DNA of 34,611 bases, from the UHGV virus genome UHGV-0165227; one strand, 5' to 3'. This stretch comes from a virus. The translations under genes were made by a program, and so were the position numbers. The notes beneath the pieces are model-generated. The model was not told where the DNA came from. It saw only the letters and a list, made by a program, of their open reading frames with translations, and searched no databases. Below, in pieces: positions 336 to 26,230 of this stretch; position 1 is the stretch's first letter; each line of letters begins with the position of its first letter.

Positions 336-962
336 TCAATGAATCCATTCCTCGCCGCGCAGTTTTGCCAGCATTGGCTGAGCGTTCTTTACGACAAAAT
401 TGTTGGTATCAAGATTCTTCATTTCACGAAGAAGTGATTTCTTGGTTTCTTCTGACATGTAGCGAGTCTCATATGCAATATCGTAAATCCTTCCTGAAAG
501 CTCAGAACCAATTTGCTTCATTCCTGGGTAGATGTGTTTGCACATTTGTTGACTCTTCTCCATCCACAATTGTAAGTAGCAGAGATTAACCAGTTCTTCG
601 TCAGTAAACTGTTTTGCAATCGGTGAGCATTCTGCCTGCCGATCCAAAATATCCAGCACCCAGCGGCGGAACTCTTTGGCTACCTGAGTGCGAGCAAACA
701 TCGCGATTAGGTGGGCACCGCGTAGTGAGAAAACACGCACTTTTTTGCGATAATTTCCTGAGGTACTCACTTCGAGTACCTGAGTCATTCCGGCGCTAAA
801 CTCATCGCTATACTTGTTATAAATCATTGTTACTGCACGACTATTTGCGTATTTAAGTGCAGATGCAATATTAGATGATGTAAACCAAACACCATGCATA
901 TCACGGGTGGGCACCAATTCAACTCCGTGGAAGTTATAATCTGATTTTGCTACAATATTCAT
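336..962 (-). CDS. ant: Antirepressor Ant (Bro-N/AntA-type N-terminal domain)
   Basis: Immediately downstream of arc on the same strand; AAGGAAA RBS before ATG at 962; Bro-N-like N-terminal pattern; upstream in-frame part of the track ORF lacks an RBS. Confidence 0.6.
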   Translation of the reverse strand: MNIVAKSDYNFHGVELVPTRDMHGVWFTSSNIASALKYANSRAVTMIYNKYSDEFSAGMTQVLEVSTSGNYRKKVRVFSLRGAHLIAMFARTQVAKEFRRWVLDILDRQAECSPIAKQFTDEELVNLCYLQLWMEKSQQMCKHIYPGMKQIGSELSGRIYDIAYETRYMSEETKKSLLREMKNLDTNNFVVKNAQPMLAKLRGEEWIH

Positions 963-1037
963 GTTAGTTTCCTTGCATACGGTTACTGACATAGAGGCCC
1001 GGTTTGTGTTCACGCACTGCCGGGCTTCACTATTTTT
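948..1037 (+). ncRNA. Candidate sar-like antisense RNA covering the ant ribosome-binding site
   Basis: Extended -10 TGCTACAAT (948-956) inside ant 5' end on the opposite strand; hairpin GCCCGG (997-1002) / CCGGGC (1020-1025) followed by U-rich tract 1026-1037. Confidence 0.35.
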
Positions 1038-1209
1038 ACTGGGCATTAGCTCTTTCCTCTCTCAGGCTTTTAGCCAGTCGCTGCACAATCGCAGAGTTGA
1101 TAGAAATTCCATCCATTTCAGCAACACGTCTAATCTCCTCCTTCATTCGCGCTGGCAAACGAAGCTGGAAACTTTGACTTTTACGACCTGTGTAAAGCAC
1201 ATCTTTCAT
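1036..1209 (-). CDS. arc: Arc-like ribbon-helix-helix repressor
   Basis: GGAGG RBS before ATG at 1209; N-terminal beta-strand plus helices motif typical of Arc/MetJ family; directly upstream of ant. Confidence 0.65.
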   Translation of the reverse strand: MKDVLYTGRKSQSFQLRLPARMKEEIRRVAEMDGISINSAIVQRLAKSLREERANAQ

Positions 1210-1237
1210 AAGTAATCCTCCCACAATGATACCAACT

Positions 1238-1251
1238 TGGTTCTAGAACCA
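1238..1251. promoter_or_regulatory. Perfect 14-bp palindrome TGGTTCTAGAACCA in the arc-mnt divergent control region; candidate operator
   Basis: Exact self-complementary 14-mer between divergent arc (start 1209) and mnt (start 1321); flanking CCAACTTGG / CAAGTTGG inverted repeat. Confidence 0.55.
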
Positions 1252-1320
1252 ATTTAACACCATTTATTTTGATGTCAAGTTGGTGCTATTGTTTAGCGAA
1301 CATCTTTACGTTGAGGTCAT

Positions 1321-1641
1321 ATGAGCAAGTTCCCTAGTCATGAAATGGATAGGTTCAATATCAGGCTTCCTGCAGGAATGCGGGATGCTATAGCTGAACG
1401 AGCCAAACGTAACGGCAGATCAATGAACTCAGAGATTGTTCAGATACTGGAAGATGCCTTGAATGCAGAAAATACACTCGGGGAAATAGCAGATAAAATC
1501 AACAGCGTCTCGGTTCCGCTAAATGTTGATGCGCTAGTTCAACTTCAAGCCCAGGTTATCGCCATGCAAAAAGAAATACAGGAAAAGTTCAGAGAGCAGA
1601 ACGAAAAGTTGAGAGAACTGCTAAACAAAAAAACCACCTGA
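1321..1641 (+). CDS. mnt: Mnt-like ribbon-helix-helix repressor
   Basis: N-terminal FNIRLP...RNGRSMNSEIVQ motif matches P22 Mnt/Arc family; GAGGT RBS; divergent from arc-ant. Confidence 0.75.
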   Translation: MSKFPSHEMDRFNIRLPAGMRDAIAERAKRNGRSMNSEIVQILEDALNAENTLGEIADKINSVSVPLNVDALVQLQAQVIAMQKEIQEKFREQNEKLRELLNKKTT

Positions 1642-25369: not shown

Positions 25370-26230
25370 TCACCTGTCGAAAAACACGTAGCCAGTTTTC
25401 GATACGGTGATTGCGGATGATGGTTTGGATTGTGGTTGAATAGTTTCTGGCTTCTCGTCGTTCCAGCGCTGACCGTTCAGGTAGCTCGATGGTAACAACC
25501 TGTCGAATCCGAACTGCTTACCATTCCTGCATGCGATGTCTTCTGCTAGCATCGTGGCAAACTCGCTTGCCGTACCCCTGGTAGTTTTACGCCATTCCCT
25601 GAACTGTGTTCTGAATGCCGAAGCTGCGTTTTTCTTCCCGGCTTTCCGCATGCCTGCACACCAGAATATTTCCTCGAATGCCTTGTCGGTTTCTTCGTGA
25701 CGGTCAGGTGATTTTTCACACTCCGTCCGAACACTTTCGGACATAGTGTTTTTATTATTTCTTTTTTCTTTTGTAATAGTTTCTTTTGTGTGTCCCTGTT
25801 TTGGTGACAGCGCTGTCACCGTTTTGGTGACACTTTTTGTCACCAATGCAGTGACATTATCACCAGAGTAGTGACACCCTTCGATTTGCCATTCCTCGAT
25901 GTTCTTGTTAGGCCCGATTTGCTGGCCTTCGCGAAGGATAACCTTCATCGCGATAAGCTCATTCTTGGCCTTGTTTACCTTCTGTCTTGGCAGCCTGGTA
26001 ATTTGAGCTAACTGACTATCAGAGATGCGATCCATCTTTTTACCGTAGCCGTATGTTTTACGGCATATGGCGTGGGCAACCTTGCTCTGATTTTTCGTTA
26101 AATCTGCGCCGATAAGCTCTTCATACAGGGCATTTGCAAGACGGGTATAACCATCTTCAACTTCTGCCACACGACGCTCCACAGGCCGTTGTGAAGGCCT
26201 TAAATGTGTTACGGTTGCAAGATTACTCAT
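25370..26230 (-). CDS. Replication initiator, lambda O-like N-terminal domain
   Basis: GADLTK...RKTYG...MDRISDSQL...GPNKNI pattern as lambda O N-terminus; iterons inside gene. Confidence 0.7.
25749..25880. other. Candidate replication origin: GTGACA-type iterons (25797-25880) plus AT-rich tract (25749-25796) inside the O-like gene
   Basis: Perfect 18-bp palindrome GGTGACAGCGCTGTCACC (25803-25820) and at least four further GGTGACA/TGTCACC half-sites, flanked by a T/A-rich stretch. Confidence 0.55.

Follow-up and report, generated by a model that had tools for sequence, protein, structure and literature searches.

The window analysed here, the whole 34,611-nt stretch of viral genome UHGV-0165227, is an E. 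coli prophage of the P22-like type. Near its left end, two short ribbon-helix-helix (RHH) genes face away from each other: an mnt-like gene on the plus strand and, on the minus strand, an arc-like gene followed by the antirepressor gene ant, with a putative sar-like antisense unit across the arc-ant junction (Table 1). Judged from sequence, this arrangement is a P22-type immI module. In a search with positions 1000-1700 (701 bp), several E. coli chromosomes were 100% identical and E. coli 55989 was 99.9% identical; in the latter strain, the neighbours of the module encode a DNA transfer protein, a tail needle knob and a tailspike containing a head-binding domain. According to the annotation of that strain, the module is found among the late genes of a P22-like genome, between those for the ejection proteins and the tailspike gene. 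A third Arc-family gene was observed beside the tailspike gene of the same prophage (E. coli 55989, L002 4030-4284), just outside the left end of the window.

The two RHH proteins were assigned by domain and structure searches (Table 1), and both were also matched at about 1e-5 by chain G of the recently deposited PDB entry 9pio, a 79-aa protein named 'Arc family DNA-binding protein'. The Mnt-like protein shares 39% identity with P22 Mnt, and the C-terminal sequence KKTT is common to both. Its AlphaFold2 model, computed for a monomer from the single sequence, was of low overall confidence (mean pLDDT 66) and displayed the two RHH helices as well as a long C-terminal helix (residues 69-105, pLDDT about 80-85); the repressor is assumed to form tetramers, as P22 Mnt does. 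A KKTT or KKPT C-terminus was encountered in Mnt-like proteins of all the operator classes described below and in several genera, on C-terminal domains that are otherwise unrelated (loci L005-L232). Regarding the putative antisense RNA (positions 948-1033), its extended -10 and its leader align with the Psar/sar region of P22, and this segment folds with a minimum free energy of -35.1 kcal/mol (z = -4.87) into two hairpins followed by a T-run. An Rfam search for sar or other RNAs returned only a symR match at chance level (E = 0.75).

Table 1. Genes, predicted promoters and repeated DNA elements of the immI module in the window
Feature	Position	Strand	Basis and remarks
Antirepressor gene ant, downstream of arc	336..962	-	Bro-N and P22_AR_C domains
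Putative sar-like antisense RNA unit spanning the arc-ant junction	948..1033	+	Extended -10 TGcTACAAT (948-956), two hairpins, T-run
Arc-like RHH gene, 57 aa, beta-strand SFQLRLP	1036..1209	-	Pfam Arc 8e-12; PDB Arc matches (including 1ARR); RefSeq annotation in E. coli 55989
Left arm ACAATGATACCAACTTG of the 17-nt inverted repeat bracketing the promoters	1223..1239		Includes CCAACTTGG
16-bp palindrome TTGGTTCTAGAACCAA	1237..1252		Two inverted half-sites TAGAACCAA with a TA overlap; proposed as the main operator for the Mnt-like protein, centre about the predicted arc-ant +1
Predicted arc-ant promoter (Pant equivalent)	1251..1278	-	-35 TTGACA (1278-1273), 16-nt spacer, extended -10 TGtTAAATT, hexamer 1256-1251
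Box TAACACCA, TAnnACCA type	1255..1262	+	Pattern match and column conservation; overlaps the TG / extended -10 of the arc-ant promoter
Right arm CAAGTTGGTGCTATTGT of the 17-nt inverted repeat	1276..1292		Includes CAAGTTGG, box TAGCACCAA (other strand) and the candidate mnt -10
Box TAGCACCAA, third half-site copy	1280..1288	-	Just past the arc-ant -35; overlaps the candidate mnt promoter -10
Candidate mnt promoter	1284..1292	+	Extended -10 TGcTATTGT, no good -35; predicted start about 1299, 22 nt upstream of the mnt ATG
Mnt-like RHH gene, 106 aa, beta-strand RFNIRLP	1321..1641	+	Pfam Arc 1.6e-20; PDB AmrZ 3QOQ, Mnt 1MNT and Arc

The 111-bp gap between the arc-like ATG (1209, minus strand) and the mnt-like ATG (1321, plus strand) contains a perfect palindrome, 28 bp from the former and 69 bp from the latter, and thus placed between the divergent starts as the initial annotation had located it. 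The exact self-complementarity claimed there for a 14-mer (TGGTTCTAGAACCA, 1238-1251) was confirmed, but its length was understated: a palindrome check on the window gave TTGGTTCTAGAACCAA, 16 bp at 1237-1252, and the extension to 18 bp fails. Length was dropped as evidence. Two hundred dinucleotide-preserving shuffles of the whole 34.6-kb window contained on average 2.3 perfect palindromes of at least 14 bp (2 observed in the window) and 0.47 of at least 16 bp, so that palindrome length is not significant alone. The naive expectation of a 16-bp palindrome falling within the 111-bp gap is about 0.002. The 16-mer with up to three mismatches had its sole match in the window at 1237-1252 (expected 0.16), while the half-site TAGNACCAA was present in three copies in 34.6 kb versus 0.78 expected, all of them inside the 52 bp of 1237-1288. 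What sets this site apart from chance is its location, together with its recurrence and conservation, and not its length. The only other long perfect palindrome of the window, GGTGACAGCGCTGTCACC (25803-25820), is formed where two iterons meet, out of about four iterons of 19-20 bp, TGTCACC-n6-GTGACA (25791-25876), lying within an O-like replication gene (25370-26230, minus strand); this iteron cluster looks like a lambdoid replication origin.

The promoter predicted for arc-ant matches 10 of 12 consensus positions, has the TG of an extended -10 and would start at about 1244-1245. The palindrome begins within the last two bases of this -10 and has its centre about 7 nt further downstream, approximately at the predicted +1, so that it covers about -8 to +8. 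Mnt-type operators are characterised by two-fold symmetry and by overlap with the region where ant transcription starts, and both features are seen here, the promoter itself being a consensus prediction.

The distribution of this element was analysed in a sample of 160 IMG/VR loci anchored on Arc-like and Mnt-like proteins, from which all divergent RHH pairs and their control regions were taken, yielding 54 distinct regions; the element was scored as present at no more than three mismatches to the 16-mer. It was found at the same place in each of the 35 regions whose Mnt-like protein carries the beta-strand RFN[I/V]RLP (hereafter class A) and was absent from all 19 regions whose Mnt beta-strand is of another type, although 13 of these 19 share the Arc beta-strand SFQLRLP. 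Arc proteins from regions lacking the element were up to 96% identical to the Arc-like protein of the window, and four Arc beta-strands (SFQLRLP, AFNLRLP, QFSLRLP and VFNLRLP) accompanied the element in the 35 regions. Simple linkage would favour Arc and not Mnt, because the arc ATG is nearer to the site (28 versus 69 bp). In a second, independent sample comprising one genome per species, the element occurred with two of three proteins of the RFNVR type versus 0 of 50 proteins of other types: it was present with the RFNVRLP proteins of Erwinia aeris and Rahnella woolbedingensis, and the exception was an RFNVRMP protein of Xenorhabdus ehlersii, which has no element upstream. These distributions support the view that the element belongs with the Mnt-like and not with the Arc-like repressor, its co-occurrence with the N-terminal beta-strand of Mnt being strict among the 54 regions. 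The proposal in the initial annotation that the palindrome serves one of the two RHH repressors can accordingly be narrowed: presence follows the RFN[I/V]RLP type of Mnt (35/35 versus 0/19) and is independent of the Arc beta-strand, which would make Mnt the candidate partner.

Alignment of the 35 class-A regions revealed a conserved core bounded by variable flanks, the Pant spacer being the most variable stretch of the core itself. Invariant columns of the palindrome were TGG at 1238-1240, C1243, A1245 and CCAA at 1249-1252. Positions 1242 and 1246 varied freely, and their symmetric partners 1247 and 1243 did not follow. Exact two-fold symmetry was restricted to 11 of the 35 distinct regions, namely those of the subgroup of the window, of Salmonella phage Oslo and of L140, the other relatives showing one to three mismatches. 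This conservation pattern therefore designates a half-site, TA(G)nACCAA, as the probable functional unit. The comparative evidence, a conserved element amid variable flanks and overlying the predicted arc-ant start, is consistent with the operator that had been suggested initially for this site.

Both elements of the arc-ant promoter, TTGACA and TG.TAAATT, were invariant in the 35 class-A regions. As for mnt, a scan for two-hexamer promoters found none on the plus strand of this region. Past the arc-ant -35, the sequence TGCTAnnnT is conserved in the two largest classes, class A and a further class termed B, including an isolated invariant T1292 within otherwise variable DNA, and it can be regarded as a candidate extended -10 of mnt. 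With this -10, the arc-ant and mnt promoters would be placed back to back and would overlap. A P22-like Pmnt within the Pant spacer was considered and rejected, the corresponding bases not being conserved.

The initial annotation had also described a second inverted pair flanking the palindrome. This pair exists, CCAACTTGG (1232-1240) having its partner CAAGTTGG at 1276-1283, but it does not properly flank the palindrome, with which CCAACTTGG shares four bases. A repeat finder recovered the pair as part of longer arms of 17 nt, 82% complementary (Table 1). The left arm, with CCAACTTGG, is kept solely in the subgroup of the window, and other class-A members read TTGACACCA. The pair seems instead to belong to a group of four TAnnACCA boxes which also covers the -10 regions of both promoters. 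Two of the four are supplied by the palindrome. In the box at 1255-1262, the ACCA core is 11 bp away from that of the right palindrome half; conservation of this box is confounded with promoter function, the class-A consensus being aatggTG.TAAATT. In the box at 1280-1288, TAGCACC is invariant in class A. Class-B regions display TAGCATCAT at that position, and because this is a match to the own motif of class B, the position would be an operator copy and not only a part of a promoter. The pattern TAnnACCA occurs four times in the gap versus 0.09 expected from its density in the window, a figure which is descriptive only, as the pattern was defined post hoc. By our own count in the sequence, the ACCA cores (1238-41, 1248-51, 1259-62 and 1281-84) are spaced by 10, 11 and 22 bp, and the four cores should therefore lie on one face of the helix.

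At least six classes combining an operator with a beta-strand could be distinguished among the relatives. Each of the other Mnt types has its own symmetric motif, located downstream of the Pant -10: ATGACATCA-n3-TGATGTCAT for the type RFT[V/I]RMP, ACCCCACGGTGGGGT, which resembles Omnt of P22, for VFNLRMP, TCACCGTGATATC for PFGLRMP and ATGGTGTTAA for KFNLRFP. Expressed as triads of beta-strand residues, the correspondence between protein and DNA reads R-N-R with ACCAA, R-T-R with ATCAT, V-N-R with CCCAC, K-N-R with CACCAT and P-G-R with CACCGTG. These classes, and the lack of similarity between the site and the P22 operators, lend weight to the earlier suggestion of a distinct immI specificity, which in sequence terms would be one among several. 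An operator for Arc was also sought: no motif was common to all regions with an SFQLRLP Arc, and none followed the type of Arc beta-strand. This SFQLRLP strand was found in combination with at least five Mnt and operator classes. A link between the VFN-type Arc and the spacer TTGACACCAT was abandoned when locus L177 was found to combine the same spacer with an SFQ Arc.

Exchanges between prophages provided further information on the part of mnt which is associated with the element. The mnt gene of many Stx phages is about 96% identical to that of the window at the nucleotide level, only from position 1367 onward, and the encoded proteins are identical to that of the window from about residue 20 to the end, with the exception of one residue. 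A different sequence occupies residues 1-19 (...DYDKFNLRFPD in Stx phages versus ...EMDRFNIRLPA in the window), and the intergenic DNA of the Stx phages is unrelated to that of the window and made of TGGCA/TGCCA boxes. In other E. coli prophages, the N-terminus and the control region are kept and the C-terminal part is different. One mosaic joint is thus situated in mnt just past the beta-strand, at about codon 19 (window position about 1367; window 1321-1380 compared with L165 1455-1515), and a second one, at about 1433, separates variants with different C-terminal halves. Because these swaps occur in both directions, the N-terminal arm and the beta-strand appear to travel with the operator. 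Knight and Sauer (1989) reportedly found that N-terminal residues set the operator specificity of both Arc and Mnt, with which the Stx-phage swap is in agreement. Joint change of the operator and of the repressor N-terminus is a feature of Mnt-type operators, and it was observed here in the two samples (35/35 versus 0/19, and 2/3 versus 0/50) as well as in the Stx swap.

The reading which we consider probable on these grounds is that, in the P22-type immI switch of this E. coli P22-like prophage, the palindrome serves the Mnt-like maintenance repressor as its main operator. In the lysogen, the Mnt-like protein would be made from its own promoter, with an N-terminal RHH domain and a long C-terminal helix, and one dimer would bind each inverted half-site TAGAACCAA of TTGGTTCTAGAACCAA. 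Because the site extends from about -8 to about +8 relative to the predicted arc-ant start, its occupation is proposed to block RNA polymerase there, which would keep the antirepressor silent. The box copies at 1255-1262 and 1280-1288 probably make repression cooperative and allow Mnt to regulate its own promoter. Upon infection, or upon loss of Mnt, the strong arc-ant promoter would fire, and Arc and the sar-like RNA would then limit Ant synthesis, by analogy with P22. Binding and its stoichiometry, the points of transcription initiation, the contribution of the additional boxes and the P22-like functions of Arc and sar are features that we infer in this scheme. Part of the conservation of the palindrome could also come from the promoter, since its left half overlaps the -10 and the start region.

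A more extensive version of this reading can be put forward tentatively, and we regard it as rather doubtful. An array of at least four helically phased ACCA-core boxes would cover both divergent promoters, so that a single Mnt-like protein would silence arc-ant and regulate its own synthesis. In addition, the first 19 or so codons of mnt and the control region would form an exchangeable 'specificity cassette', passed between phages by recombination at a recurrent joint just after the beta-strand, from which many heteroimmune immI types could arise on otherwise identical repressor bodies. Such a multi-box array would differ from the case of P22 Mnt, which has a single operator.

Other explanations of the site have to be weighed against an operator for Mnt. 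The palindrome may instead be the operator of the Arc-like repressor, or be common to Arc and Mnt, in which case early Arc made from the same promoter would shut off arc-ant at its start site. The central TCTAGA provides a TAGA on both strands, and Oarc of P22 is built from TAGA boxes; arc is the gene nearest to the site, the search of the spacer, where P22 has its Oarc, found no other candidate Arc operator, and the beta-strands of the Arc-like and Mnt-like proteins are of a similar type (x-F-x-x-R-L-P). We nevertheless find this explanation unlikely. Arc proteins with the strand SFQLRLP, up to 96% identical to that of the window, are found in 13 distinct regions devoid of the element, and four different Arc beta-strands accompany it where it is present. 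Moreover, conservation within the site is lowest at the central C/G of TCTAGA, most relatives having TTGTAG or TTTTAG, and P22 Arc binds between the -35 and the -10 and not at +1.

It could also be argued that no repressor is involved, conservation reflecting only the function of the arc-ant promoter (-10, discriminator and start site) and the symmetry being accidental. TTGG does abut the -10 hexamer, the conserved core coincides with two promoters, palindromes of such a length are expected about 0.5 times per window and the symmetry is imperfect in most relatives. This proposal leaves the conservation of TAGnACCAA out to +8 without explanation, as it does the recurrence of the 9-mer past the -35; furthermore, the DNA block changes whenever the N-terminus of Mnt changes, while the TTGACA and -10 logic remains constant. 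Its probability appears small. Likewise, the 6-bp stem with a 4-nt loop that can be drawn from the palindrome, and the highly mosaic nature of the immI region (PMC2629481), could point to a hairpin acting in RNA or DNA, whether a 5' stem-loop of the arc-ant mRNA, a cruciform or a recombination site at a mosaic boundary. Transcription is predicted to start halfway through the palindrome, which would leave its left arm out of the mRNA, and the variation at 1242 and 1246 is uncompensated at the paired positions 1247 and 1243; the RNA form was rejected on these two counts. As the mosaic joints fall inside mnt (about codon 19 and about 1433) and not at the palindrome, such explanations seem extremely improbable altogether.

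With the palindrome read as an Mnt operator, the data most likely describe a new sequence specificity within the well-known immI switch of P22, and not a system of a new kind; the accepted view of the functioning of such switches is unchanged. If confirmed, the site and its repressor would represent a second operator/repressor pair, unrelated in sequence, for the classic Mnt/Arc ribbon-helix-helix system. The at least six natural classes constitute a ready-made data set for the recognition code between beta-sheet and DNA, and they help to predict immI heteroimmunity among P22-like and lambdoid prophages.

RHH dimers are able to read several short boxes, in direct or inverted orientation and at close regular spacing, as exemplified by the met-boxes of MetJ and the heptads of the omega repressor, two proteins which bind units of 7-8 bp in tandem. 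The present site differs from these in that its conserved cores are 10-11 bp apart and in that the protein most resembles the tetrameric Mnt. Among solved structures, the best match to the N-terminal domain of the Mnt-like protein was AmrZ of Pseudomonas aeruginosa (PDB 3QOQ, E = 1.3e-8), and it includes the extended N-terminal arm and the strand x-F-x-V-R-L-P. However, AmrZ is a chromosomal global regulator and not a phage immunity repressor, and both its beta-strand residues (K, V, R) and its target sites are different.

The 'ant moron' is described as highly variable, only the version of P22 having been studied (genome papers on epsilon34 and phage L; PMC2629481, PMC8022706). A literature search retrieved neither TTGGTTCTAGAACCAA nor a characterised immI or Mnt operator from outside P22, and no binding or expression data for the palindrome site. 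At the level of the module, the window and P22 share the divergence of mnt from arc-ant and the placement of the module, with ejection-protein genes on one side and the tailspike gene on the other; the unit at the arc-ant junction of the window is a putative equivalent of P22 sar. Arc is in both a small RHH protein of 53-57 aa encoded by the first gene of the arc-ant operon, and TAGA is present in the DNA site of both. In the annotated record of P22, Oarc is ATGATAGAAGCACTCTACTAT, 21 bp, which fills the Pant spacer with its TAGA boxes in an arrangement opposite to that of the site described here. The palindrome does not co-vary with the Arc-like protein.

The resemblance to Mnt of P22 is more extensive. 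Both Mnt proteins consist of an N-terminal RHH domain and a C-terminal helical extension ending in KKTT, in both the specificity tracks the N-terminal beta-strand, and in both modules a symmetric operator directly follows the Pant -10. The geometry differs to some extent, the centre being at about +8 in P22 versus about +1 here, where extra copies of the half-site are moreover found over both -10 regions. Pmnt of P22 is annotated inside the Pant spacer, whereas the mnt promoter of the window appears to be an extended -10 beyond the Pant -35. The difference from the P22 operators noted in the initial annotation agrees with the annotated record: neither Oarc nor Omnt resembles 1237-1252, Omnt lying around AGGTCCACGGTGGACCT and being unrelated in sequence to TTGGTTCTAGAACCAA, and the beta-strand residues differ as well (H-F-N-F-R in P22 versus R-F-N-I-R here). 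By analogy of position the palindrome is best seen as the equivalent of Omnt and not of Oarc, while by its sequence it resembles neither of them.
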